Notes under the pieces: generated by a model
Seen by the model: the letters and a program-made list of their open reading frames with translations, nothing else
The model's database searches: none
What the model was told of the DNA's origin: nothing
Assembly (NCBI GenBank): GCA_038065275.1
Contig: JBBTRH010000009.1
Coordinates: forward strand, 1-50,248
Length of the DNA: 50,248 nt
DNA from: Patescibacteria group bacterium
Lineage (GTDB): Bacteria > Patescibacteriota > Patescibacteriia > SBBC01 > CAIJZX01
Direction of reading: 5' to 3'
Program-made: the position numbers and the translations under genes
Shown here: positions 4,676-50,248 of the stretch, in pieces
How the letters are laid out: each line of letters opens with the position of its first letter
Position numbering within the stretch: position 1 is the stretch's first letter

Positions 4676-4747
4676 GCGCACCTAGCTCAATGGTAGAGCT
4701 CTCGTCTTATACACGAGTGGTTCCAGGTTCGAGTCCTGGGGTGCGCA
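4676..4747 (+). tRNA. tRNA-Ile (anticodon TAT)
   Basis: Hand-folded cloverleaf: gcgcacc/ggtgcgc acceptor, gctc-aatggta-gagc D arm, ctcgt-cTTATac-acgag anticodon arm, ccagg-ttcgagt-cctgg T arm. No encoded CCA. Flanked by a 9-bp complementary leader/trailer (ggctcttag / ctaagagcc). Confidence 0.85.
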
Positions 4748-4756
4748 CTAAGAGCC

Positions 4757-4850
4757 TAGGCGGCTGTCTTACTTGCCCCGCACCCGAAGCAAAGCGGAGT
4801 GGCGCGGGGTACACGGCCGGTCCATGGTTCGAATCCATGTCCGCCCACCA
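4757..4850 (+). pseudogene. tRNA-like 3' fragment (T arm, acceptor 3' strand, CCA) preceded by a CTTG-CCCCGCAC...GCGCGGGG hairpin
   Basis: A good T arm (catgg-ttcgaat-ccatg) is followed by tccgccc-acca. No matching 5' acceptor strand or D arm could be folded. The hairpin at 4772-4809 belongs to the CCCCGCAC family seen in other broken tRNAs. Confidence 0.4.
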
Positions 4851-4981
4851 ACAGACGATCATCATCCACCCCGTACGGCGGGGCAGGCACATGGGTGGTT
4901 GCGACCGGTCGTAACTTGTCCCGTCGCATGGGATGACCGGTCGAGTTCCGGCTTGCGCGAAGCCGGCCAACGCCTCGGCCC

Positions 4982-5048
4982 AAGCAGGTTTCTGGCGAAC
5001 GATAGTTAAACGAACCGATGGTGATTCGGCTAGGCGTTTTTTCTGGTG
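4982..5048 (+). repeat. Left copy of a 67-nt direct repeat ending in a hairpin, a T-run and TGGTG
   Basis: aagcaggtttctggcgaacgatagttaaacgaaccgatggtgattcggctaggcgttttttctggtg. It matches 8598-8664 with 5 mismatches by hand alignment. Confidence 0.8.
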
Positions 5049-6482: not shown

Positions 6483-7205
6483 ATGGAAAACATTATTAAC
6501 AATATTCAACGATACCTTACAAAAAGAAATCTTCTTTTCATCGCGATTTTTGCGGTGGTTGGATTTATCGCCCTTCAGATTCCAGTGGCACAGTTGGAGG
6601 GATCAAAGGTGAAGTTTACGATCTATGACACGTTCGCGCCGATCGCTGGCGCCTTCATCGGAAGTATCCCCGGAGTCATAGCGGTATTTCTGATGCAATT
6701 TTTCAACTTTCTGGCGCATGGAGCCCATATTGAAGATGCGGGGACGATCATTCGTTTTTTTCCAATGATTTTCGCGGCCCTCTACTTCGCAAAAAAAGGA
6801 AGATTCAATTTAATCGTTCCCGCAATTGCGATCGTGGCTTTCGTAGCCCATCCTATTGGCAGAACTGTCTGGTATTTCGCGCTTTTCTGGACCGTTCCTA
6901 TGGTTGCGTATTTCCTTCGCGATCGATTCTTGCTCGCGCGAGCGCTCGGATCGACATTTACTGCTCACGCGGTTGGCGGTGCTTTATGGATTTGGACATT
7001 TTCGCTTCCGGCGCCTGTCTGGAATTCACTTATTCCCGTAGTAACCATAGAACGCACTCTGTTTGCCATCGGAATTGCCGGATCTTTTCTGCTGGTCAAT
7101 AACCTCCTCTGTCTCGCAGAAAAGAAACACGTTCTCAATCTTAGCTTTCGCGTTAACCAGAAGTATCTGATTTATCCTCTTCGTGATTACTATGAACCCC
7201 GTTAG
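6483..7205 (+). CDS. Hypothetical integral membrane protein
   Basis: ORF 6426..7205 with likely start MENIINNIQ at 6483. About 6 hydrophobic segments. The stop codon TAG lies inside the TIR of the element at 7197. Confidence 0.6.
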   Translation: MENIINNIQRYLTKRNLLFIAIFAVVGFIALQIPVAQLEGSKVKFTIYDTFAPIAGAFIGSIPGVIAVFLMQFFNFLAHGAHIEDAGTIIRFFPMIFAALYFAKKGRFNLIVPAIAIVAFVAHPIGRTVWYFALFWTVPMVAYFLRDRFLLARALGSTFTAHAVGGALWIWTFSLPAPVWNSLIPVVTIERTLFAIGIAGSFLLVNNLLCLAEKKHVLNLSFRVNQKYLIYPLRDYYEPR

Positions 7206-7273
7206 AAATCTCAAGGATTAGCTAGTGGGGCAAAAAATATAGAGTGGCTATGACACACAAATTTCTAACGGGG
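7197..7273. mobile_element. MITE-like element, CCCCGTTAGA family, copy a (77 bp, TSD TGAA)
   Basis: ccccgttagaaat (7197-7209) is the reverse complement of atttctaacgggg (7261-7273). TGAA directly flanks both ends. Confidence 0.75.
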
Positions 7274-8520: not shown

Positions 8521-8597
8521 ATTTTCAAAGAGCGTGTGGCAATCATAATTTACGAAACAAGGACGGCCCGACAGTCCTTCCATGACCGGCTTTGCGT

Positions 8598-8664
8598 AAG
8601 CAAGTTTCCGGCGAACGATAGTTAAACGGACCGATGGTGATTCGGCTGGGCGTTTTTTTTGGTG
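8598..8664 (+). repeat. Right copy of the 67-nt direct repeat
   Basis: aagcaagtttccggcgaacgatagttaaacggaccgatggtgattcggctgggcgttttttttggtg. The final TGGTG is the CCA end of the minus-strand tRNA-like gene at 8660. Confidence 0.8.
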
Positions 8665-9173: not shown

Positions 9174-9274
9174 CCCCGTTAGAGGCGAACGTAATTCGCC
9201 AGCTTAGCCGGTATTATTCAGGATGCTAGGAAAAACAGTAATGCAACTGGTATCAATATTCGCCTCTAACGGGG
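9174..9274. mobile_element. MITE-like element, CCCCGTTAGAGGCG family, copy b (101 bp, TSD TCAA)
   Basis: ccccgttagaggcgaa (9174-9189) pairs with ttcgcctctaacgggg (9259-9274). TCAA is present on both flanks. Confidence 0.8.
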
Positions 9275-12520: not shown

Positions 12521-12607
12521 GCGGCCGTGGCGGAACTGGTATACGCGCTAGCTTGAGGGGCTAGTGGTCGCAAGACCGTGGAGGTTCGAGTCCTCTCGGC
12601 CGCACCA
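12521..12607 (+). tRNA. tRNA-Leu (anticodon GAG)
   Basis: gcggccg tg gcg-gaactggtata-cgc g ctagc-ttGAGgg-gctag, long variable arm tggtcgcaagaccgt, ggagg-ttcgagt-cctct cggccgc ACCA. The leader caactggt pairs with accagttg (discriminator, CCA and trailer). Confidence 0.9.
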
Positions 12608-12962
12608 GTTGTTTAGAAAGTGCTAGCTTGCCTGCCCGCCGTAGCTCCGAGCGAAGGCGGAAGGGGCTAGTGGTCGCAAGACCGTGGAGGTTCGAGTCCT
12701 CTCGGCCGCACCAGTTGTTTAGAAAGTGCTAGCTTGCCTGCCCGCCAAAGCTCACCAGAGCGCTAGCGAAGGAGAGCGTCGGCGGGAGGGGCTAGTGGTC
12801 GCAAGACCGTGGAGGTTCAAATCCTCTCGTCCGCACCATTTGCGCATGTCATCGCATGACTGGTCGAGTCCTCTCGTCCGCACCAGCTGTTTAGAAAGCG
12901 CTAGCTTGCCTGTCCGCCGTAGCTCCGAGCGAAGGCGGAAGGGGCTAGTGGTCGCAAGACCT
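12608..12962 (+). repeat. Tandem array of about 3.5 tRNA-Leu 3' fragments, each with a hairpin inserted in the anticodon loop
   Basis: The unit is gttgtttagaaagtG-CTAGC-TTG-[cctgcccgcc...ggcgg(g)a]-(A)GGG-GCTAG-variable arm-T arm-acceptor-CCA. Unit ends fall at 12713, 12838 and 12885, and the last copy is truncated at about 12962. None of the copies has a D arm or 5' acceptor strand. Confidence 0.8.
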
Positions 12963-12984
12963 TGTCCCGCCACGGCGGGATCGT

Positions 12985-13016
12985 CCGCACAAACCGTGAG
13001 GTGCGGTTGTGTTTTT
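12985..13016 (+). terminator. Intrinsic terminator closing the tRNA-Leu region
   Basis: ccgcac-aaaccgtgag-gtgcgg followed by ttgtgttttt. Confidence 0.6.
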
Positions 13017-13042
13017 CGTCCATGGTCTGCTACGATAGCGGT

Positions 13043-13321
13043 ATGTCCGAGGGCCAACACATCGATAGCGAAGACGCTGAACGACCAGGCGTGTTGGCGG
13101 TGAAAACCGAGAATAACCACTTTATTGTCACTGTTCGCTGGGTTGACGGCGAAAAATCGGAACTCCATTTTCCCACTCGCGGTTTTCCGGTCGTGACCCC
13201 GGACACGGGCGATCCACTTGGGCGCTTAACCGGCGAGCAGGCGCTCGAAATTATTCGCCGCGTAGCGGCGGGCAGTATGCGCTCCGAATTCTCCTGGGCT
13301 AAACACATCAAGCGCGAATAA
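13043..13321 (+). CDS. Hypothetical protein (92 aa)
   Basis: ORF 12962..13321. The upstream part overlaps tRNA-derived repeats, so I prefer the start MSEGQHIDSED at 13043. Confidence 0.45.
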   Translation: MSEGQHIDSEDAERPGVLAVKTENNHFIVTVRWVDGEKSELHFPTRGFPVVTPDTGDPLGRLTGEQALEIIRRVAAGSMRSEFSWAKHIKRE

Positions 13322-13397
13322 ACCCCGGCCTCATCCGCGACGCAGAGTCAGGATGGTTTGACGATTGATTATCCGGCTGAACCTTGCTACAATGCGC

Positions 13398-13446
13398 CCG
13401 CCTTCGTCCCGACCGCACAAGTGCGTCGGGACTACGGCGGGCAGGC
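13398..13446. repeat. 49-nt hairpin repeat CCGCCTTCGTCCCGACCGCACAAGTGCGTCGGGACTACGGCGGGCAGGC, copy 1
   Basis: By eye it is identical to 14114-14162 and 37719-37767. It is followed by a second hairpin, cgcccgccgaagacttgttcggcggcag. Confidence 0.85.
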
Positions 13447-13546
13447 CCGCCCGCCGAAGACTTGTTCGGCGGCAGGCAGGTGGTTAGCCCGCCCCGCTCG
13501 CTTCGCTACAAAGATCGAAACTCGACATGATAACTGTGTGAAACCT

Positions 13547-13631
13547 GGGGATGTAGCTCAGTTGGTTACCCCGAACCAATGCTCGCGTTAGCTCGCATGG
13601 TACGGGGCAAGGAGCGCAAAACTTAAAACAG
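13547..13631 (+). pseudogene. tRNA 5' fragment with a 43-nt hairpin in the D loop
   Basis: ggggatg ta gctc agttggtta [ccccgaacc...ggtacggggcaag] gagc g caaaacttaaaaca. It then runs directly into the intact tRNA-Val with no 3' half. Confidence 0.55.
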
Positions 13632-13708
13632 GGGCTCGTAGCTCAGTTGGTTAGAGCGTCTCGTTTACACCGAGAAGGTCCTCCGTTCGAATCGGAGCGG
13701 GCCCACCA
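13632..13708 (+). tRNA. tRNA-Val (anticodon TAC)
   Basis: gggctcg ta gctc-agttggtta-gagc g tctcg-ttTACac-cgaga aggtc ctccg-ttcgaat-cggag cgggccc ACCA. Confidence 0.9.
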
Positions 13709-13729
13709 AGGCATGCTACAATACTGAAC

Positions 13730-13984
13730 ATGAAATGGCTCATCTCCCTGATCGTTATCGCCGTCGGCGCGTTCATGGTCATCAAGACGCAATGGATCTA
13801 TGATTTCACCGGTCCGATCGACTGGGCGGAACAACATCTGGGGACGGAGGGCGGAACGCGGTTGTTCATCAAGTTACTCGGCGTGCTCCTTATTCTCGGC
13901 GCTTTCCTCGGCGTGACCGGCATCCTCGGCAACTGGGTGCTAGCCATCTTCGGTGGGTTTGCCCAGTCATCGTCGGTGCAGTAA
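13730..13984 (+). CDS. Small membrane protein (84 aa, 2-3 TM)
   Basis: MKWLISLIVIAVGAFMVIK...LLGVLLILGAFLGVTGILGNWVLAIFGG is a hydrophobic small ORF. Confidence 0.5.
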   Translation: MKWLISLIVIAVGAFMVIKTQWIYDFTGPIDWAEQHLGTEGGTRLFIKLLGVLLILGAFLGVTGILGNWVLAIFGGFAQSSSVQ

Positions 13985-13987
13985 TTA

Positions 13988-14022
13988 CGGGCCGTTAGTT
14001 CGGCGGTAGAACACCTCATTTG
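13988..14022 (+). pseudogene. tRNA-Ala-like 5' half, broken after TTTG of the anticodon loop (outermost copy)
   Basis: gggccgt ta gttc-ggcggta-gaac a cctca tttg, then tcccgcac... The break position matches the next copy. Confidence 0.55.
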
Positions 14023-14037
14023 TCCCGCACTTTTGGA

Positions 14038-14215
14038 GGGCTGTTAGCCCCGATGTCCGGCGAAGCCGGAATCGGGATCCCGACCCGACATTCTGATGGA
14101 GGCGTCGGGACTCCCGCCTTCGTCCCGACCGCACAAGTGCGTCGGGACTACGGCGGGCAGGCTCGCCCGCCAAAGACTTGTTCGGCGGCAGACAGTTGGT
14201 AGAGCGTCCGGTTTG
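14038..14215 (+). pseudogene. tRNA-Ala(TGC) 5' half with two hairpin inserts in the D arm, broken after TTTG
   Basis: gggctgt ta gc[63-nt cccgat...gtcgggac, 14049-14111]tc[ccgcc...ggcaggc plus a second hairpin, 14114-~14193]agttggta gagc g tccgg tttg | tcccgatt... Confidence 0.7.
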
Positions 14216-14230
14216 TCCCGATTCCTAGAA

Positions 14231-14476
14231 ATGTTTTTCCTCTACATTCTACAGTCGAAAACAGACGGATCATATTACATAGGTTCTTGTGAAAATATTA
14301 CAACGAGGTTACTGTTGCATAATCAGGGAAAGGTGCGATCGACAAAACGCGGATCACCCTGGATGCTGGTATATCAAGAAAGTTTCACCACACGATCAGA
14401 GGCATATGCAAGAGAACAACAAATAAAATCATGGAAAAAGAGAGCGGCCATCGAAAAACTCATTAAACATTTCTAG
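14231..14476 (+). CDS. GIY-YIG nuclease domain protein (81 aa)
   Basis: MFFLYILQSKTDGSYYIGSCENITTRLLLHNQGKVRSTKRG...WMLVYQESFTTRSEAYAREQQIKSWKKRAAIEKL has the GIY...YIG, R and E motifs of small stand-alone GIY-YIG proteins. It is AT-rich compared with its flanks and is bracketed by the 16-bp inverted repeat attcctagaaatgttt / aaacatttctaggaat. Confidence 0.85.
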   Translation: MFFLYILQSKTDGSYYIGSCENITTRLLLHNQGKVRSTKRGSPWMLVYQESFTTRSEAYAREQQIKSWKKRAAIEKLIKHF

Positions 14477-14504
14477 GAATCGTGGATCCTCGATTGCGCC
14501 TGGT

Positions 14505-14580
14505 GGGCCGTTAGCTCAGCTGGTAGAGCGTCCGGTTTGCATCCGGGAGGTCGCCGGTTCGAATCCGGCACGGTCCACCA
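14505..14580 (+). tRNA. tRNA-Ala (anticodon TGC)
   Basis: gggccgt ta gctc-agctggta-gagc g tccgg-ttTGCat-ccggg aggtc gccgg-ttcgaat-ccggc acggtcc ACCA. The G3:U70 identity pair is present. The leader gcgcctggt pairs with accaggcgc. Confidence 0.92.
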
Positions 14581-14593
14581 GGCGCAATCGGGA

Positions 14594-14717
14594 CATCCGG
14601 AAGGTCAGGAGTTTCTGGCGGAGCCGGACCAGGCTCCGCCTGGCGAGCCCGGTAGGGTCCACCCGAATTGTCGGGACATCCGGAAGGTCAGCGGTTCAAT
14701 TCCGCCACGGTCCACCA
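14594..14717 (+). pseudogene. Two successive tRNA-Ala 3' remnants, each starting at CAT of the anticodon loop
   Basis: ...aatcggga|c-at-ccgga-aggtc-agg... (14594-~14665, degenerate). ...attgtcggga|c-at-ccgga aggtc agcgg-ttcaatt-ccgcc acggtcc ACCA (14677-14717). Confidence 0.7.
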
Positions 14718-14721
14718 AAAC

Positions 14722-15071
14722 TGGTGCTGGGTTTTTGCCGAAAACCTGCAACTCGCTACTTAACCCCGCACTATGCCTCGTTACACTCGGCAAATGCGGG
14801 GCAAGGAGGCAGTATCCGTCGCTCACCTGGTGACCCGAGGAGGACTCGAACCTCCAACCCGCTGCTTAAGAGGCAGCTACTCTACCAATTGAGCTATCGG
14901 GCCAGGTGAGCGACGGATTAGATGATCGTCAGCTGCTCCTTGCCCCGCACCGGAGTGGAACTACTGGTGCGGGGTACCAATTGAGTCCCGACGCCTCCAT
15001 CGCGATGTCGGGTCGGGATCCCGATTCCCGAAGTTCGCCGAGCGAATTCGGGACATCGGGGCTAGCGGGCC
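14722..15071 (-). pseudogene. Disrupted outer tRNA-Lys-like gene enclosing the intact tRNA-Lys
   Basis: Minus strand: ggcccgc ta gc[76-nt insert 14985-15060]tc aattggta [ccccgcacc...ggtgcggggcaag 14939-14974] gagc a gctg(a) ... intact tRNA cassette ... (g)cctc[cttgccccgc...gcgggg]ttaag tagcg agtt gcagg ... No proper T arm or 3' acceptor. Confidence 0.55.
14828..14903 (-). tRNA. tRNA-Lys (anticodon CTT)
   Basis: ggcccga ta gctc-aattggta-gagt a gctgc-ctCTTaa-gcagc gggtt ggagg-ttcgagt-cctcc tcgggtc ACCA. Bracketed by 12-bp complementary flanks (14816-14827 / 14905-14916). Confidence 0.9.
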
Positions 15072-15114
15072 GAAGGAGAGTAATAAATTATCGCAAAACG
15101 TGGCAAAAAGCAAG

Positions 15115-15215
15115 CCCCGTTAGAGGCGGTTGAGATTTTGTTTTTGAAAATCTCACCAACCGAGTTGATTAACCAGCTCGTTCCGTAGACTATAGTTCTT
15201 CCGCCTCTAACGGGG
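15115..15215. mobile_element. MITE-like element, CCCCGTTAGAGGCG family, copy c (101 bp, TSD CAAG)
   Basis: ccccgttagaggcgg (15115-15129) pairs with ccgcctctaacgggg (15201-15215). CAAG is present on both flanks. Confidence 0.8.
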
Positions 15216-15775: not shown

Positions 15776-15963
15776 ATAGTTGGAGATTAATTAAAGAAAA
15801 ATTTTCTTTTACCAAAATGTGGTTCGGGCCGATGGATTCGGCGTGGCTCACCACAGGTATTTTTCTCCGGCTTGCCCCGCACCCATGTGGTGCGGGGGTT
15901 CCTTGGCGGTCCTTCGGCAGGCTCAGGACAAGTTTTTGAACGATCGCGGCGGAATCGCCGGCC

Positions 15964-16221: not shown

Positions 16222-16284
16222 ATTGGCAGACTAGGTTAATAATCATGCCCTGTCAATAGGTTTCGTAAGTGTAGCAGGGCTCGA

Positions 16285-16362
16285 ATGGTTCGACAAGCTC
16301 ACCGCGTCGCCTGCAACCCGCTGCTTAAGAGGCAGCTGCTCTACCAATTGAGCTATCGGGCC
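16285..16362 (-). pseudogene. tRNA-Lys(CTT)-like gene with an insertion in the T loop and no 3' acceptor strand
   Basis: ggcccga ta gctc aattggta gagc a gctgc ctCTTaa gcagc gggtt gcagg [cgacgcggtgagcttgtcgaacca]ttcgagc cctgc, followed by non-complementary sequence. Confidence 0.6.
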
Positions 16363-16365
16363 TTA

Positions 16366-16404
16366 GTGCCTGGGATCAGAATCGAACTGATGACGCCAGC
16401 CTCT
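16366..16404 (-). pseudogene. tRNA-Phe 3' remnant (anticodon stem 3' strand to acceptor)
   Basis: Plus strand gtgcctgggatcagaatcgaactgatgacgccagcctct matches the 3' part of the intact tRNA-Phe, then diverges in the anticodon loop. Confidence 0.7.
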
Positions 16405-16530
16405 TTTTACCCAGCACCGGACCTCGAGCTTGCCGAGAGGGATTGGTGCTGTGGCAGGGCGGGATTCATCCCGCCCAATTCCCTGGTGCCTGGAGTCAGA
16501 ACCCCGCACCAGCCGTGTTCATCTCGCCGG

Positions 16531-16602
16531 TGCCTGGGATCAGAATCGAACTGATGACGCCAGCCTCTTCAGGGCTGCGCTCTACCACTGAGCTACCCAG
16601 GC
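16531..16602 (-). tRNA. tRNA-Phe (anticodon GAA)
   Basis: gcctggg ta gctc-agtggta-gagc g cagcc-ctGAAga-ggctg gcgtc atcag-ttcgatt-ctgat cccaggc A. The acceptor helix is extended by the flanking ccggt/accgg. Confidence 0.9.
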
Positions 16603-16659
16603 ACCGGGAAGACGAACCTATTATCGTGTATTGTAAAGCAGTAAATAATTAACTCTCAA

Positions 16660-16790
16660 ACGGCTGGTACGGGGCAAGTCGAACCGCTAGTTTACCCCGA
16701 GCCGTGTCGAGGGGCCAGCCTCTTTCCGGCGAAGCCGGATCCGGCCATCTGGCCGGACAGGGCTGCGCTCTACCACTGAGCTACCCAGGC
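16660..16790 (-). pseudogene. tRNA-Phe copy with a 33-nt hairpin between G34 and A35 and a degenerate 3' part
   Basis: gcctggg ta gctc agtggta gagc g cagcc ctg[tccggccagatggccggatccggcttcgccgga, 16725-16757]aaga ggctg, followed by hairpin repeats where the T arm should be. Confidence 0.65.
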
Positions 16791-16812
16791 AAGAAACCAG
16801 GGAACTGCACGG

Positions 16813-16938
16813 GACTCTACCACTGCCAGCCCGCCGTAGCGTCAGTGACGGCGGGAGTCCCGACGCCTCCATTGGAATGTCGGGTCGGGATCCCGATTCC
16901 CGATCGCTAGGCGCATCGGGAATCGGGGCTACCCAGGC
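16813..16938 (-). pseudogene. tRNA-Phe 5' fragment with two D-arm hairpin inserts
   Basis: gcctggg ta gc[71-nt cccgatt...gtcgggac, 16857-16927]tc[ccgccgtcactgacgctacggcgggctggc]agtggta gagt... The insert positions match those in the Ala fragment at 14038. Confidence 0.65.
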
Positions 16939-28863: not shown

Positions 28864-28941
28864 TCCCGTTAGAAGCTAATTTCCCCCGCGTCCTCTGATC
28901 GGGCAATAAAGTAATTTTTTCCGTCGCCGCCTCTAACGGGA
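28864..28941. mobile_element. MITE-like element, (T)CCCGTTAGA family, copy d (78 bp, TSD CGAG)
   Basis: tcccgttagaagc pairs with gcctctaacggga. CGAG is present on both flanks (28860-28863 and 28942-28945). It lies 15 nt upstream of the infB start. Confidence 0.7.
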
Positions 28942-45849: not shown

Positions 45850-46053
45850 ATGGAAATTTCTGCGTTGCTCATTTGGCATTACTACGACGAAGAAGGCAAG
45901 CTCGAGTCGCATTCGATCACGGACTTCACAGGGAACCGAGAGCAGCTTCGTAAGTGCGCCAACGCTGATGATATCAAGCCTGGCGGTGATCGTTACGACG
46001 CTCGGATTCCACGCAAGAGAAGCGTCTTGCAACAGATTGTTCTTCTTCCGTGA
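45850..46053 (+). CDS. Cassette ORF: hypothetical protein (67 aa)
   Basis: Strong RBS AAGGAGG 7 nt upstream. Confidence 0.45.
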   Translation: MEISALLIWHYYDEEGKLESHSITDFTGNREQLRKCANADDIKPGGDRYDARIPRKRSVLQQIVLLP

Positions 46054-46112
46054 CTCGAGCGGTTTCAAAAAGCGGACGTCTTATGGCGCCCGCTTTTCAT
46101 AACGACAAAATT

Positions 46113-46179
46113 TCCCCTAACGTTCGCGCGTCATACGCGGCGGAGCGAAGCGGAGTTGCGTATACGCGCTGTTAGTCGA
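46113..46179 (+). repeat. attC-like site F
   Basis: tcccctAAC gttcg cgcgt-C-atacgc ggcggagcgaagcggagtt gcgtat-acgcg ct GTTagtcga. Confidence 0.75.
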
Positions 46180-46218
46180 TGTATTTCTTTTCTTTTTCAG
46201 TGATACCCGTTGAACAGG

Positions 46219-46689
46219 CTACTTTGCCGTGACACAATTGATGCACTGCGGGTCGATAAACAAAAACGCACTGGAGCCGTCGTTCCGGAACGTTCCTTTG
46301 ATAGCAACAGTTTTCCCTGTTTGTGCCACCTGATAAACGTCTTGGACACCATTCATGTAAATCGTTCCGGAGGACGTTACAAACGCAGGTCCAATCGCAG
46401 GCATATATGGAACATTGCTGTTGGTCGCAGGTAGGGCAGTCATTGTTACAACGCCTTGGACAATCACAATCTTTCCATCCAACTCAACGCGTTGCAATAA
46501 AGCCTTTTCAGCGCTCAGCGTTCTCAATTGTGCTTTCTGGTCGTTTGTATTCGTCGATGCGGAATTCGATTGATTTGTGTGTTGAACAGCCGATTGTTTA
46601 GACCGCATGGGCCCAAACAATAACCCTGCCAAGGCCAGTAGAATCAAGAGCGAGAGGAAAGTAATAGTTCGTTTTGACATGATGCTCAT
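46219..46689 (-). CDS. Cassette ORF: hypothetical secreted protein (156 aa)
   Basis: Signal/TM-like ITFLSLLILLALAGLLFG. Confidence 0.55.
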   Translation of the reverse strand: MSIMSKRTITFLSLLILLALAGLLFGPMRSKQSAVQHTNQSNSASTNTNDQKAQLRTLSAEKALLQRVELDGKIVIVQGVVTMTALPATNSNVPYMPAIGPAFVTSSGTIYMNGVQDVYQVAQTGKTVAIKGTFRNDGSSAFLFIDPQCINCVTAK

Positions 46690-46791
46690 TTTGGTGGGTG
46701 GGGAGGAAATCGGTTTTTGGGTAGCGGATGATGCTGTGTTTACTCACATCAAGAGGTATTCGATGCAGGTTTGCCCAAGAAAAGAAATATT

Positions 46792-46852
46792 TCGACTAAC
46801 GTCCGGGTATCATACGCCCGTACTCATATGGCGTATATACCCTGTTATCGGA
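46792..46852 (+). repeat. attC-like site G
   Basis: tcgactAAC gtccg ggtat-C-atacgcc cgtactcatat ggcgtat-atacc ct GTTatcgga. It differs from site D by one loop substitution. Confidence 0.75.
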
Positions 46853-46957
46853 TGTATTGCTCTTTGGCGTTAGCCTTCTGGCGATTAGCCAATACGCAAA
46901 ATGCTTTTAGAAGAGGGGGGACAAACACGCGGTTTGTCCCCACAGTAGAGCGTAGTT

Positions 46958-47122
46958 CTAGTCGTCGCCGAAAGGACTGGTGTCAGCTTCCCGGAAACAC
47001 GGTTCGCAGTAAAGTCCATCGGGACCAAACTGTGGCTTTCCGCGATCGCAGACCTGAGTATAGTCTGTACTTCCACACTCAACACATCGCCCGTCTCTCG
47101 TCCGGACTTCTTGCGTACCCAT
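46958..47122 (-). CDS. Cassette ORF: zinc-ribbon-like small protein (54 aa)
   Basis: Hand-found frame MGTQEVRTRDGRCVECGSTDYTQVCDRGKPQFGPDGLYCEPCFREADTSPFGDD, preceded by GGAGG. It has CxxC...CxxC. I prefer it over the listed 80-aa ORF 46885..47127. Confidence 0.5.
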   Translation of the reverse strand: MGTQEVRTRDGRCVECGSTDYTQVCDRGKPQFGPDGLYCEPCFREADTSPFGDD

Positions 47123-47184
47123 GGCACACCTCCGTTTTGATTAGTTTACGCTCTTCTAAAAGCATTTTGTAAAAGAGCAATATT

Positions 47185-47361
47185 TCCGATAACGTTCGCG
47201 CGTAGAGGAAGTTGGCTGACCGCCCTGTGGTACACTTGCTTACCACGGGGCGGACAGCCGATTTGTGGTAAGCCGATAGGCTCAAACACATCCTTCTAGT
47301 AGATGTATATTACCAGTAATGTTGCTTAATCGAAAGACCTCCTCTACGCGCTGTTGTACGA
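47185..47361 (+). repeat. attC-like site H (long, 177 nt)
   Basis: tccgatAAC gttcg cgcgtagagga ...interior homologous to E... tcctctacgcg ct GTTgtacga. Confidence 0.7.
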
Positions 47362-47460
47362 TTTGATGCTTTGCCGTGTAATTGACAAAAAGTTACTTCT
47401 TAAGTAAGCTGGGGCGCTCGTTCCTGTAGAGATCAAAGGCACAAACCTGAGGAGGATGTC

Positions 47461-47955
47461 GTGAGAAGGAAGCTAGTTGTTGGTGTCATGGGGCCTGGCC
47501 GCGTGGCAACGGATAGGCAGATCGATGTGGCCTACAAGGTAGGCCGAATGATCGCAGAAGCTGGTTGTAATCTGCTGAATGGTGGAGTTGCTCACGGTGT
47601 CATGGACGCGTCTGCCAGAGGAGCTGCTGAAATAGGAGGCGTCGAGATCATCGGCGTGACTCCGCATAAGCAGCCGTCTGAAACCCACCCCGTTTCGGAG
47701 CACGTGACTATCCTGATCGAGACGACGTTCGGTGAAGGTCGCAACCTGATCAATGCCAGGTCCAGCGATCTGGTCATCGCCATCGGAATGTGTCCGGGGA
47801 CTGCCAGCGAAGTCTGCTTCGCGATCAAGGCAGGGAAGCCCATCTTCCTAATGGATTGTCCCTCGGAAGCTCACGACTTCTTTCGTGCTCTTGGTGGCAA
47901 TGTGCAGATCGGAATCATAGAACACATCCGGTCGATGCTCATGGAACGTGCCTAA
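47461..47955 (+). CDS. Cassette ORF: TIGR00725/LOG-like (SLOG superfamily) Rossmann protein (164 aa)
   Basis: (V)RRKLVVGVMGPG...LLNGGVAHGVMDASARGA...VIAIGMCPGTASEV. GTG start after GAGGAGG, with an upstream TTGACA-17-TAAGCT. Confidence 0.65.
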   Translation: MRRKLVVGVMGPGRVATDRQIDVAYKVGRMIAEAGCNLLNGGVAHGVMDASARGAAEIGGVEIIGVTPHKQPSETHPVSEHVTILIETTFGEGRNLINARSSDLVIAIGMCPGTASEVCFAIKAGKPIFLMDCPSEAHDFFRALGGNVQIGIIEHIRSMLMERA

Positions 47956-48025
47956 TGCTCGTTAGAACGAGAAGCCCCAGCCGTCTTCCAGGCCGCGGGC
48001 TTCTTTCTTTTATTAAAGCATCATT

Positions 48026-48084
48026 TCGTACAACGTCCGCGACTATACGAAGTACTTATATTTCGAATAGTCGCTGTTGTACGC
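48026..48084 (+). repeat. attC-like site I
   Basis: tcgtacAAC gtccg cgact atacgaagtacttatatttcgaat agtcg ct GTTgtacgc. Confidence 0.75.
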
Positions 48085-48092
48085 TGTTTCAC

Positions 48093-48557
48093 TCATTGCC
48101 AACCGTGTTCACTGTAAAAGGTTTTGTTTTTAATACCTTCGAGAGCCTGTCTGATGTATGGAATGATGTTGTCAGGCAGACTATCAAGATCAAACCATGA
48201 TAAATCATCACATTTATCTGGTTCTTTAATTTGAGGCTCACCTTGCCATTGTCGAGCAATAAAAAAGACATCAACTCGGTGATTATTTTCAGAATCGCGC
48301 GAATCCCTTTGCATGACATGAGCGACTTCCAAATCACCGGGCTTTAATATTATTCCCGCCTCTTCCATAGCTTCTCGGACGATGCATGACGTAAAAGTCT
48401 CACCTTCATTTACATGGCCGGCGACCATACTGTACTTACCATCTTCGTATCCTGTGTTGAAACGCCGGAGTAGAAGCACCTTGCCATCCTTCACTAATGT
48501 GAGATATGAAGCGGGAATGAGTTGATGTCTTTTTTTCTTTGCGTGATTACTAGTCAT
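48093..48557 (-). CDS. Cassette ORF: NUDIX hydrolase (154 aa)
   Basis: Nudix box AGHVNEGETFTSCIVREAMEEAGI. Confidence 0.85.
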   Translation of the reverse strand: MTSNHAKKKRHQLIPASYLTLVKDGKVLLLRRFNTGYEDGKYSMVAGHVNEGETFTSCIVREAMEEAGIILKPGDLEVAHVMQRDSRDSENNHRVDVFFIARQWQGEPQIKEPDKCDDLSWFDLDSLPDNIIPYIRQALEGIKNKTFYSEHGWQ

Positions 48558-48696
48558 GTTTGATTACTTGAGGCAATGAGTGAAATGGCGTACAACGTTT
48601 CGGGCTAGCCGAAGTTGCGTAGTCCGCGTGGCGGTACAATTTTACCACCGCCTAAGCGGACAAGCAATTTGGGTGAGCGAGTTATTTCTCTTTGTT

Positions 48697-48999
48697 TTAT
48701 GTGGCAAGTTCTAAGATTTTGACTTTGTTTTTCAAAACGCTTGACAGTTCTTCTTCCTGTACCGCCAAGTCAAAGCGGGACTGCAAGTTAAGCCAAAACT
48801 GCGGTGAAGTTCGAAAATACTTCCCTAAGCGAAGAGCGGTATCGGCACTAATCGCCCGCTCTCCATGGATAATCTCATTGATCCGGCGCGGGGCAACATC
48901 AACATCTTTTGCCAACCGGTATTGGCTGATGGCGAAAGGCTCCAAAAACTCTTCCATGAGTATCTCGCCCGGATGAATTGGTTGCATTTTTTTGGTCAT
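48697..48999 (-). CDS. higA: HigA-type antitoxin (HTH, Xre family)
   Basis: MQPIHPGEILMEEFLEPFAISQYRLAKDVDVAPRRINEIIHGERAISADTALRLGKYF is a classic HigA/VapI sequence. Confidence 0.88.
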   Translation of the reverse strand: MTKKMQPIHPGEILMEEFLEPFAISQYRLAKDVDVAPRRINEIIHGERAISADTALRLGKYFRTSPQFWLNLQSRFDLAVQEEELSSVLKNKVKILELAT

Positions 49000-49019
49000 A
49001 GTAATGTAGGTTATTCTCG

Positions 49020-49304
49020 TTAATGATGATAATCGACGATTTCTACTTCGTAAGCGTCACCCTGACGCCAGTTGAAACAAATTCTCCACTGGTCATTGAT
49101 GCGAATACTGTGTTGTCCGCGCCGGTTGCCCTTGAGTTTCTCCAGGCGATTCGCCCGGGGTACTCGTAAGTCTTGAATATTCAGGGCCGCATCGATCATC
49201 CAGAGTTTTCGCAAGGCAGTTCGTTGGATATCTGGAGGCAGTTTTGGCGAATATTCCCGGTTAAATATTCCAGCCGCTTCCTTTGATTTAAAGCTCTTTA
49301 TCAT
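49020..49304 (-). CDS. higB: HigB-type toxin (RelE/ParE superfamily, plasmid maintenance system killer)
   Basis: MIKSFKSKEAAGIFNREYSPKLPPDIQRTALRKLWMIDAA...LKGNRRGQHSIRINDQWRICF. The toxin lies upstream of the antitoxin, as in higBA. Confidence 0.88.
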   Translation of the reverse strand: MIKSFKSKEAAGIFNREYSPKLPPDIQRTALRKLWMIDAALNIQDLRVPRANRLEKLKGNRRGQHSIRINDQWRICFNWRQGDAYEVEIVDYHH

Positions 49305-49530
49305 GCGATAGGGGTATAATAACGTATTACAATAATACTGTCAAGCGTTAACAGTAGCAAGAAATAACTCGCTCACCGGTTAGCCCGTGTTAGCTGATGT
49401 ATTCCTTTTCTTTTCTTCTCTTGCTAAGAGAAGGCGGGGGGAAAAATCTTTCAAATTTTTCTTTGATCGGTCTCTCTACAATAATGAAGCGGGGTCCGAC
49501 CGATTGGCCGAACCCCATCACGATCCCCAT

Positions 49531-50004
49531 TCATTTCCAGGTACCAGCCATTCTGAAGAAGCTCAACTGTTCGTGAATGCGAGGTGCAATCTCACCTACA
49601 ACCCTCAGGAATTCAGGCAGTGCGTCCCGGACTGCCTTCGTGTACCAGGCAGGAAGGGTCAGGCGATACCCATCATAGGGGCCAGTGAATTTCCAAATGG
49701 TATGGCTTCCGGGTGTGATCAGTGTTCCAACCGTTATGACCCACATGCCCTCGACGTTATCGACATCGAGAGTACCAGACACCCCCGTTTCCAGGGGCTG
49801 ATCTCCTGGCAGGTGCGCAAGTCCCGTGTAAATACCATGTAGCGGGACTTGGAATACTCTGCTCTGCCTCTCCTTTACACGGAGCTTCCTCAGGAAAGGC
49901 ATCACGATCCCGAAAATCGCCTCAACCTCCCTCCGGTAACGATCGACATTCCCCGATCCACGGATGATTTGCTGGGTATCTTCTGGCGTGCAGTGTTCTT
50001 TCAC
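49531..50004 (-). CDS. Cassette ORF: hypothetical protein (157 aa)
   Basis: Long ORF with no motif recognised. Confidence 0.5.
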   Translation of the reverse strand: MKEHCTPEDTQQIIRGSGNVDRYRREVEAIFGIVMPFLRKLRVKERQSRVFQVPLHGIYTGLAHLPGDQPLETGVSGTLDVDNVEGMWVITVGTLITPGSHTIWKFTGPYDGYRLTLPAWYTKAVRDALPEFLRVVGEIAPRIHEQLSFFRMAGTWK

Positions 50005-50187
50005 AACTTCCTCCTGGTCCTGTCTCCAGGACGCCTCTCTCGAGTTGCGGAGTGTACATCAGCCGCTTTGGCCACACTTGGTCTACCACTAATAGATACT
50101 TGTTGTCAACATACCTTGGCTAAGAAAGAAATTTGAAGGATCTTTTACCCCCCTCGGGCAGTAGCCCGGAAAAAGAAAAGGAATATG

Positions 50188-50248
50188 TCAGCTAACTCGT
50201 TATTATGCGAACTGGGGCGGGTTGGCACCCTTATTATTGCATATTTTG
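50188..50248 (+). repeat. attC-like site K (left arm only; cut by window edge)
   Basis: tcagctAAC tcgtt... Its left 9-mer is the exact reverse complement of the GTTagctga that opens this cassette at 49389. Confidence 0.55.

Follow-up and report, generated by a model that had tools for sequence, protein, structure and literature searches.

As a rule, a selfish element can settle in an essential gene only by splicing out again, as introns and inteins do. In the present work, we analyse a stretch of 50,248 nucleotides (nt) from a Patescibacteria group bacterium (GenBank assembly GCA_038065275.1, contig JBBTRH010000009.1, positions 1 to 50,248; hereafter the window, always at its full length), in which tRNA genes are broken by GC-rich hairpins. 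These inserts, placed with precision, are copies of a selfish DNA element, apparently not described before, a longer relative of which encodes a small GIY-YIG nuclease and encloses an intact tRNA gene. The element appears to supply a spare copy of the gene that it breaks, which would be a different route into essential genes.

A model in which a mobile element disrupts tRNA genes has been put forward for Caldiarchaeum (PMC3293823). The window resembles archaeal non-canonical tRNA introns and split tRNA genes in that different tRNAs are interrupted at many positions by related short inserts, tRNA fragments adjoin intact genes and a mobile element is implicated; it differs in its bacterial host, in the absence of a bulge-helix-bulge motif, in the redundancy of the interrupted copies, in having inserts outside tRNAs as well, and in its associated protein, which is neither a recombinase nor a splicing endonuclease, being a GIY-YIG nuclease. 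Mitochondrial double-hairpin elements, yeast GC clusters and the repetitive hairpin-forming elements of sponges are GC-rich single or double hairpins in an AT-richer background, found between and within genes and kept in transcripts (PMC2800124). Like the mitochondrial double-hairpin elements and GC clusters, for which no encoded function is known, the inserts in the window are short GC-rich hairpins, both intergenic and intragenic. The organellar hairpins have no known fixed tRNA positions and no demonstrated autonomous relative, whereas here a nuclease-carrying version has the same ends; the two groups are compared by description, and no sequence kinship is expected. The phage T4 protein SegB is a free-standing GIY-YIG homing endonuclease encoded in a tRNA cluster; its site contains a conserved T-loop motif, it spreads itself together with neighbouring tRNA genes (PMC2330249), and it promotes segmental amplification (PMC13096335). 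The common feature is a GIY-YIG nuclease gene among tRNA genes; SegB is larger, phage-borne and not enclosed in a hairpin, and it has no miniature derivatives.

Other bacterial elements share single traits with the one described here. The Rickettsia palindromic elements, which Ogata and colleagues are said to have described in 2000, reportedly sit in frame inside protein genes, as do some copies of the present element, although the sequences and hosts are different; neither a nuclease-carrying master copy nor a tRNA cargo is known for them. Repetitive extragenic palindromic (REP) sequences and bacterial interspersed mosaic elements with their RAYT transposases, and the palindromic elements of the IS200/IS605 type, are hairpin-based, make no target duplication and form large miniature families. 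Unlike these, the present element has no HUH transposase nearby, its ends are the bases of the hairpins themselves, and it is found in both orientations at one site. Integrative elements that target tRNA genes reportedly carry a replacement for part of the tRNA, an account attributed to Williams in 2002. The window shows a similar outcome, with the gene broken, a working copy left and displaced fragments beside the intact gene; those elements use tyrosine integrases and are kilobases long, whereas the present unit measures about 390 nt, has hairpins at its borders and holds a whole tRNA. A full-text search of the literature, with most subscription journals outside its reach so that absence is not proof, returned no description of these elements and nothing that connects tRNA genes with bacterial GIY-YIG genes or with UPF0213 proteins.

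Three types of insert occur in the window (Table 1). Type 1 is a double-hairpin element (DHE) of 63-76 nt, with four copies that all lie between tRNA nt 10 and 11 (in Ala, Lys, Phe and Ala-CGC copies), flanked in each case by ...TAG^ and ^CTCA (the caret marks the junction). Its termini are TCCCGA...TCGGGA, it is not accompanied by a target duplication, and the loop of hairpin 2 is common to three of the four copies. A first-pass annotation, made from the letters of the window alone, had placed all four inserts at one fixed D-arm position, between a G-C and a T-C; the position was verified, and the junction proved to be one ambiguous C off, being fixed as TAG^CTC by copy 4, which begins with T. 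Type 2 (CCGCC...GGCGGGC) was likewise rightly assigned to a fixed D-arm site, since it lies between nt 13 and 14 in three fragments, and a fourth copy was found at 13397-13477. Type 3 (CCCCG...CGGGGCAAG) had been located at the 3' end of the D loop, which holds for two fragments (nt 21/22); because two more copies lie in anticodon loops and one outside any tRNA, this type is not confined to one position. It ends in a constant 4-nt tail, CAAG, and its 5' flank ends in A in six of seven copies.

Table 1. Hairpin inserts, the nuclease-carrying element and broken tRNA genes in the window (nt, tRNA position; ^, junction).
Feature	Positions	Strand	Context
DHE copy 1, 63 nt	14048-14110	+	nt 10/11 of outer disrupted tRNA-Ala(TGC); CCCCGAT..ATCGGGA / TCCCGAC..GTCGGGA; flanks GTTAG^ and ^CTC
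DHE copy 2, 76 nt	14986-15061	-	nt 10/11 of outer disrupted tRNA-Lys; hairpin 1 contains nested TCCCGAA..TTCGGGA hairpin
DHE copy 3, 71 nt	16858-16928	-	nt 10/11 of tRNA-Phe 5' fragment
DHE copy 4, 69 nt	37818-37886	+	nt 10/11 of outer disrupted tRNA-Ala(CGC); first base T
Type 2 compound hairpin	14114-14193	+	nt 13/14 of outer tRNA-Ala; CCGCC..GGCGG around GTCCCGAC..GTCGGGAC hairpin, then second hairpin
Type 2 compound hairpin, second copy	13397-13477	+	95% identical to Ala copy (repeat family D6); then D-loop-like AGGTGGTTAG
Type 2 partial hairpin	37719-37767	+	nt 13/14 of Val-like 5' fragment (37707-37718 plus 37768-37789)
Type-2-like CCGCCG..CGGCGG hairpin	16825-16854	-	nt 13/14 of tRNA-Phe 5' fragment
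Type 3 hairpin (CCCCG..CGGGGCAAG)	13569-13611	+	nt 21/22 of Val-like 5' fragment (13547-13568, 13612-13618)
Type 3 hairpin	14939-14974	-	nt 21/22 of outer tRNA-Lys
Type 3 hairpin	14764-14805	+	anticodon loop of outer tRNA-Lys, inverted relative to that tRNA
Type 3 hairpin	4773-4810		anticodon loop of tRNA 3' fragment after tRNA-Ile
Type 3 hairpin	15871-15897		outside any tRNA
Large element, hairpin 1	14216-14486	+	TCCCGATTCCTAGAAATG..CATTTCTAGGAATCG(T)GGA, also written TCCCGATTCC...GGAATCG(T)GGA; loop is the GIY-YIG gene
GIY-YIG nuclease gene, 81 aa	14231-14476	+	PF01541, 1.8e-16 (Pfam)
Large element, hairpin 2	14487-14593	+	TCC(T)CGATTGCGCCTGGT..ACCAGGCGCAATCGGGA, also written TCC(T)CGATTGCGCC...GGCGCAATCGGGA; encloses intact tRNA-Ala(TGC) 14505-14580
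Outer disrupted tRNA-Ala(TGC)	14038-14717	+	exons 14038-14047, 14111-14113, 14194-14215, 14677-14717; 14594-14608 duplicates nt 36-50; large element at G35^C36
Outermost tRNA 5' half (nt 1-35, ...CATTTG^)	13989-14022	+	broken at same anticodon-loop site; then hairpin arm TCCCGCAC.. (14023-14037)
Insert in 3' part of Ala nest	14609-14676	+	hairpin 14617-14640, tRNA 3'-end remnant 14644-14663, closing arm ..GTCGGGA
tRNA-Lys nest	14721-15071	-	outer pieces 15062-15071, 14975-14985, 14930-14938, 14806-14810, 14721-14763
tRNA-Phe nest	16366-16938	-	5' fragment with DHE 16815-16938; intact tRNA-Phe(GAA) 16529-16602; 3' fragment 16366-16405
Second tRNA-Phe 5' copy	16758-16790	-	TCCGG-type double hairpin 16725-16757 at G34^A35, then nt 34-44 (16714-16724)
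tRNA-Lys(CTT) pseudogene	16277-16362	-	24-nt T-loop insert, no 3' acceptor strand; Rfam tRNA 36.5 bits, no ARAGORN call
37.7-38.1 kb nest	37707-38057	+	Val-like 5' fragment first; outer tRNA-Ala(CGC) pieces 37808-37817, 37887-37911, 38022-38057
tRNA-Leu(GAG) array	12521-12995	+	intact gene 12521-12607, then 3-4 tandem 3' fragments

The anticodon loop of the outer tRNA-Ala is split at G35^C36 by a much larger insert, a 378-nt double hairpin at 14216-14593. Hairpin 1 has as its loop a gene for an 81-aa protein, and hairpin 2 encloses an intact tRNA-Ala(TGC). The protein consists of a GIY-YIG catalytic domain with no separate DNA-binding domain; it belongs to the UPF0213 group of roughly 80-100 aa, with 1ZG2 and 1YWL as the closest solved structures, and the expected active-site residues (Y5, Y15, R26, H30 and E62) are invariant across four homologues. 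Miniature and nuclease-bearing hairpins have the same termini. In the window (14487-14593) and at four other loci (L243, L245, L247 and L251), hairpin 2 has a left arm whose end, TGGT(GG), pairs with the 3' CCACCA of the carried tRNA; several of the cargoes coincide exactly with the ends of the mature tRNA.

The interrupted tRNA genes form nests, in which each broken copy adjoins or surrounds an intact tRNA with the same anticodon; most of the interrupted copies are truncated. Removal of the inserted segments from the outer tRNA-Ala(TGC) yields a perfect tRNA-Ala that is called by ARAGORN and differs from the inner copy at T5, T16, A44 and the T arm (AGCGG/CCGCC). The first-pass annotation had described the flanking tRNA sequence as preserved to the nucleotide, which is true of this gene and of the two outer tRNA-Phe halves (16758-16790 and 16366-16405), which together make up a tRNA-Phe. 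The description fails for the outer tRNA-Ala(CGC), which lacks 5 nt on the 3' side of its anticodon-loop insert, for the outer tRNA-Lys, whose T arm is decayed, and for several copies that are 5' fragments only. Accordingly mixed was the outcome of removing inserts in silico, as that annotation had proposed: among the window's other outer copies, excision restored none of Lys, Ala-CGC, the second Lys (T-loop insert) and the Val fragment. The remaining nests follow the plan of the Ala nest, with intact tRNAs flanked by inverted repeats of 10-14 bp in the Lys, Phe and Ala-CGC nests; tRNA-Lys(CTT) (14828-14903, minus strand) lies between the 13-bp repeats TCCGTCGCTCACC and GGTGAGCGACGGA, and tRNA-Ala(CGC) (37933-38007) is enclosed by the arms TCCCGCACC.. 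(37912-37932) and ..GGTGCGGGA (38008-38021). These data favour the view that hairpins persist only in tRNA gene copies that were already redundant, and the interrupted copies are probably not expressed as working tRNAs.

The nests are not an artefact of assembly, since an independent contig from another sample matches 12662-15095, which holds the Ala and Lys nests, with a single mismatch. Contigs identical to the window stem from 0.2-um samples of Hainich groundwater. The window is part of a bacterial chromosome, with a GC content of about 42-64% and genes for FtsH, RNase Y, YmdB, IF-2, ClpP, ribosomal protein L19 and glutamate dehydrogenase; it has 11 intact tRNA genes according to ARAGORN and Rfam. 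Within it, 35 of 57 CCCG...CGGG hairpin calls (many of them overlapping) fall inside tRNA islands, which make up 8.2% of the sequence, and other GC-rich seeds place mostly 0-15% of their hairpin calls there. Plain counts of CCCGAT and similar motifs in the window were uninformative, and a generic scan for GC-rich hairpins was too noisy for use.

The distribution of the element was then examined by two pattern scans with unconstrained flanks, one of species-representative genomes and one of metagenomes. The pattern of the first scan was too loose, about half of its matches being chance occurrences in high-GC coding sequence, and the left arm of hairpin 1 was therefore required as a filter. After filtering, 165 double hairpins remained in 153 loci (median locus GC 0.45; a few loci are the same contig twice), whose record titles name many Patescibacteria as well as Omnitrophota and Margulisiibacteriota, including Saganbacteria and WOR-1. 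The termini are constant across copies, and the loops vary with the GC content of the host. An intact tRNA lies within 300 nt of 72 of the 165 copies, as against 24.6 +/- 3.8 for random positions in the same loci, and the flanks of 63 copies align contiguously across the junction to a tRNA. The positions are clustered: nt 10/11 (24 copies), nt 12-13 (5), nt 15-16 (7), nt 20-25 (6), the anticodon region (about 6) and the T loop at GGTTC^RAWYC (about 14). The element occurs in both orientations relative to the tRNA, including at one and the same site. It is also present in intergenic DNA and, in frame, inside open reading frames (ORFs) that resemble RNase R, MetH, RluB and glycosyltransferases, as named from their translated sequences. 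Inverted repeats of at least 9 bp border 13% of the intact tRNAs in these loci, compared with 0.7% in controls.

No flanking direct repeat accompanies 141 of the 163 copies with full 12-nt flanks. G stands at position -1 in 59% of copies and C at +1 in 52%, with A or T at -2 and +2 in 85%; this preference is still present, in looser form, away from tRNAs, and the commonest sites in tRNA sequence are AG^CT and TC^GA. The census therefore bears out the proposal of the first-pass annotation that the inserts are precise and targeted by sequence or structure, that they lack target duplications and that random decay does not explain them; the enrichment near tRNAs favours targeting, and the insert boundaries do not wander. 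Two familiar labels were considered. The element has the terminal inverted repeats of a miniature inverted-repeat transposable element, TCCCGA...TCGGGA, and departs from that class in making no target site duplication. A longer relative with the same ends exists; it encodes a GIY-YIG nuclease, a protein that is not a known prokaryotic transposase. An identity as integron attC sites was rejected for the double hairpins, as they have no RYYYAAC...GTTRRRY boxes.

A link to the nuclease emerges from the proteins encoded around the 165 elements. In an unbiased clustering of ORFs within 1.5 kb, the small GIY-YIG proteins were the only recurrent family, at 27 independent loci; the next families were housekeeping genes, at 5 loci, and no transposase, integrase or HUH family was recurrent. 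About 30 of 32 GIY-YIG genes have an intact tRNA 2-70 nt away on the same strand. Two layouts are seen: a tRNA 5' fragment with a double hairpin, then the nuclease gene, then an intact tRNA; or an intact tRNA, then a nuclease gene whose reading frame runs into a hairpin, then TAG^hairpin^CTCAG... with the remainder of the second tRNA copy. In one nuclease clade (L129, L132, L202 and L219), the ORF enters the double hairpin, which encodes a C-terminus of the form ..SSPDVLAEQEVGIPI... At L224 (and also L168), whole modules recur in tandem about every 428 nt, each made up of a fragment with its hairpin, the nuclease gene and tRNA-Glu; this recalls the segmental amplification reported for T4 SegB (PMC13096335).

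The association was also approached from the opposite side, with nothing but protein sequence used to retrieve homologues (58-70% identical) of the window nuclease, an approach that removes the selection bias of loci chosen for the element. Exact matches to the RNase Y and GIY-YIG proteins of the window, sought with two choices of start in a collection that did not give access to the window's own contig, did not turn up. Five distinct loci repeat the Ala layout of the window, with tRNA-Ala(TGC) or (CGC), and three further contigs duplicate two of them: an outer tRNA-Ala half ending ..TTYG^ is followed by hairpin 1 with the nuclease gene, hairpin 2 with an intact tRNA-Ala, and ^CAW... One of these five loci (L245), whose nuclease homologue is assigned by one source to a Patescibacteria group bacterium, is syntenic with the window; a Nomurabacteria copy has an empty hairpin 2 and lies at a TG^CA site outside tRNA; and the last (L252, with a second contig, L253) has the layout of 5' fragment with double hairpin, nuclease and intact tRNA. 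Excision of the unit of about 390 nt restores a tRNA-Ala at two loci and, at a third, gives a tRNA that ARAGORN labels Arg(TCG).

Recent movement is documented at one pair of loci with unrelated outer flanks, L247 and L248, where the 284-nt nuclease hairpin is identical at 281 of 284 positions (98.9%). The adjoining tRNA halves are only 76% identical and hairpin 2 only 62%, and the identity breaks exactly at the hairpin ends, so the single hairpin is a discrete and recently mobile unit. A gene that lies at its own target with so sharp a boundary, together with a catalytic domain and conserved active-site residues, is what is expected of a GIY-YIG homing endonuclease; the DNA-binding domain of such an enzyme is absent. 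The nuclease may cut the target or the ends of the element, and the lack of that domain makes it possible that it reads DNA structure. Movement may be by homing, with a break mended from a filled copy, or by transposition, and insertion at sites without homology favours transposition.

We consider it likely that the inserts are a family of mobile, DNA-level hairpin elements with miniature derivatives, related to the larger form that bears the nuclease. The unit would be a hairpin with TCCCGA...TCGGGA ends, tandem pairs of which often form a double hairpin, and whose loop may be nearly empty (miniatures of 45-100 nt) or hold either a GIY-YIG gene of about 80 aa or a whole tRNA gene. It would insert at the DNA level without target duplication, with a preference for G before and C after the junction and A or T beside each. 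Its preferred dyads would fall at invariant tRNA sites, namely TAG^CTCAG (nt 10/11), CAG^YTGG (D loop), TG^CA (some anticodon loops) and GGTTC^GAAYC (T loop); the A-box, anticodon-loop and B-box sequences would be struck for the short dyads that they contain, and this would account for inserts at matching places in unrelated tRNAs. The carried tRNA-Ala would replace the resident gene broken by the insertion, and repeated invasion of the carried tRNA would produce the nested structures of tRNA within tRNA. Miniatures would be moved in trans and survive only where harmless, being confined to displaced, redundant copies because selection would remove insertions in a sole working tRNA gene. More tentatively, and with rather less confidence than in the family itself, we suggest that these may constitute a new class of prokaryotic mobile element: bounded by hairpins, mobilised by a GIY-YIG protein of about 80 aa, directed to dyad sites in the most conserved parts of tRNAs without target duplication, able to carry a whole replacement tRNA, and represented by a large miniature family over three phyla, with some members translated within proteins.

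The alternative that fares best, though we judge it unlikely, is that the hairpins are REP-like or PATE-like elements moved by an HUH transposase (RAYT or IS200/IS605 TnpA) encoded elsewhere, the GIY-YIG protein being an unrelated homing endonuclease that shares the same tRNA neighbourhoods. Hairpin ends and the absence of target duplication are hallmarks of the single-strand transposition of the IS200/IS605 type, the CAAG tail and 5' A flank of type 3 fit it as well, and a transposase gene might lie beyond the 50 kb of this genome that are visible. Such a gene would still have to account for the ORF survey, in which neither an HUH nor any other transposase recurred within 1.5 kb of the 165 elements, for a nuclease gene inside a hairpin with the termini of the miniature copies, for the movement of that hairpin as a discrete unit, and for insertion in both orientations at the same site.

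The first-pass annotation had likened the inserts to mobile archaeal tRNA introns and left open whether they are spliced or merely tolerated in dead copies. As a mechanism, archaeal-style splicing, by which a structure-specific endonuclease would remove the hairpins from the transcripts of interrupted genes and the exons would then be ligated, is very improbable. It would accommodate the exact junctions, the perfect cloverleaf of the outer tRNA-Ala after excision and the recurrence of positions across tRNA species; palindromic termini would also make orientation irrelevant to an enzyme that reads structure. Predicted RNA folds of the inserts, however, consist of two helices that pair the first to the last inserted base (z = -2.3 to -4.2), with no bulge-helix-bulge (two 3-nt bulges on either side of a 4-bp helix) at the junctions, and a threshold as loose as E<=1 brought up no match to an intron or ribozyme family. 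The host is a bacterium, the window ORFs scanned (within 50 kb of the genome) included neither a splicing endonuclease nor RtcB, and copies of the element are also present between genes and within protein-coding ones, in both orientations, with a large relative that encodes a nuclease. Excision of a single element restores a tRNA in only 4 of the 165 copies, and each of the four has an intact twin with the same anticodon 22-267 nt away; most copies are truncated. Tolerance in dead copies is thus the favoured half of the earlier question. A group I intron was rejected for its part, as covariance models found no ribozyme core at E<=1, the inserts measure 30-80 nt and, in the one of 378 nt, an ORF and a tRNA take up the space.

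Equally improbable is an origin of the tRNA fragments as scars left when integrases inserted larger elements at tRNA genes and excised them, with the hairpins as untargeted secondary colonisers or terminators. The tandem 3' fragments after tRNA-Leu do resemble serial attachment-site remnants, and the anticodon and T loops are classical integrase sublocations; against this, 5' fragments are as common as 3' fragments, clustering of the ORFs within 1.5 kb revealed no integrase near any locus, and in many genomes the hairpins break tRNA sequence that is otherwise continuous, at a small number of exact positions, as random colonisation would not. Finally, fold-back or template-switch repair at nuclease breaks, by which hairpins would arise de novo instead of being copied, would suit the highly variable loops that track host GC and the nesting of hairpins in hairpins, and is nevertheless very unlikely given termini conserved across phyla, the hairpin 2 loop common to three window copies, a type 2 insert 95% identical at two loci and a nuclease hairpin 99% identical at unrelated ones.

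Several points weigh against our preferred reading, that of a mobile hairpin family related to the nuclease-bearing form. An all-against-all comparison of loci revealed no filled-versus-empty site polymorphism for a miniature copy, the only difference of this kind being one unrelated 1.8-kb indel. The model gives no account of how an 81-aa protein with a catalytic domain alone finds its target, and no activity or cut site is known for it. The nuclease hairpin has moved independently of hairpin 2, which complicates the treatment of nuclease and spare tRNA as one unit. The association is inflated, since the presence of the element was the ground for selecting most loci, and the reverse test covers only the clade nearest the window nuclease. 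The site preference is loose, the T-loop site TC^GA is unlike AG^CT, and 'dyad centre' may describe the sites without governing them. Types 2 and 3, with different termini or the CAAG tail, are rare in other loci; they may have a different mover, and, being less well sampled, may also differ in origin. Redundancy was judged from 50 kb of the source genome, and the case against RNA-level processing is made from sequence alone.

If the preferred reading is correct, it would explain the nested tRNA fragments, extra tRNA copies and GC-rich hairpins seen in uncultured, small-celled bacteria. It would also offer a possible role for the UPF0213 GIY-YIG proteins, whose solved structures are deposited only as hypothetical proteins. 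Sequences of these kinds confuse tRNA annotation, break assemblies and may seed recombination. Two features make the system accessible: the diagnostic differences between the outer and inner tRNA-Ala let transcript data separate the copies, and the 81-aa protein and its 284-nt hairpin are small enough for biochemistry.

Two further tRNA islands in the window contain fragments. In the tRNA-Leu(GAG) array, each 3' fragment starts in the anticodon stem and has a CCGCC-type hairpin at G34^A35. The corresponding array of a near-identical strain has one 106-nt unit of fragment plus hairpin fewer (L241, 1880-2290, versus window 12521-12995). Downstream of tRNA-Leu this strain, which comes from a different Hainich sample, shares 99.96% identity with the window, and upstream only 96.5%; the recombination break and the change in copy number both fall at the fragment array. 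A tRNA-Ile with the rare anticodon TAT (4676-4860) has no encoded CCA, its leader and trailer form a 9-bp inverted repeat (GGCTCTTAG/CTAAGAGCC), and it is followed by a tRNA 3' fragment with a type 3 hairpin.

The window also holds repeats of other kinds. A 78-nt repeat with a T-run end (87% identical; D13) lies beside two tRNA islands, at 4971-5048 and 8587-8664. From 41400 to 50248, a low-GC stretch (42-48%) has about ten imperfect inverted repeats of roughly 60-70 nt between small ORFs, at spacings of 400-1600 nt (for example 43426-43492, 44117-44183, 44634-44700, 45067-45132 and 46789-46854). It looks like an integron-type array of gene cassettes with attC sites, a repeat different from the double hairpins; no integrase was seen in the window, and the array has no Rfam match. 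A separate family of about 75-100 nt, with terminal inverted repeats of 9-15 bp (CCCGTTAGAGGCG...CGCCTCTAACGGG), occurs at 7198-7272, 9175-9273, 15116-15214, 28865-28940 and 38532-38630, and a similar element (CCCCGTTAGAAATTT...) adjoins the nuclease locus L248.

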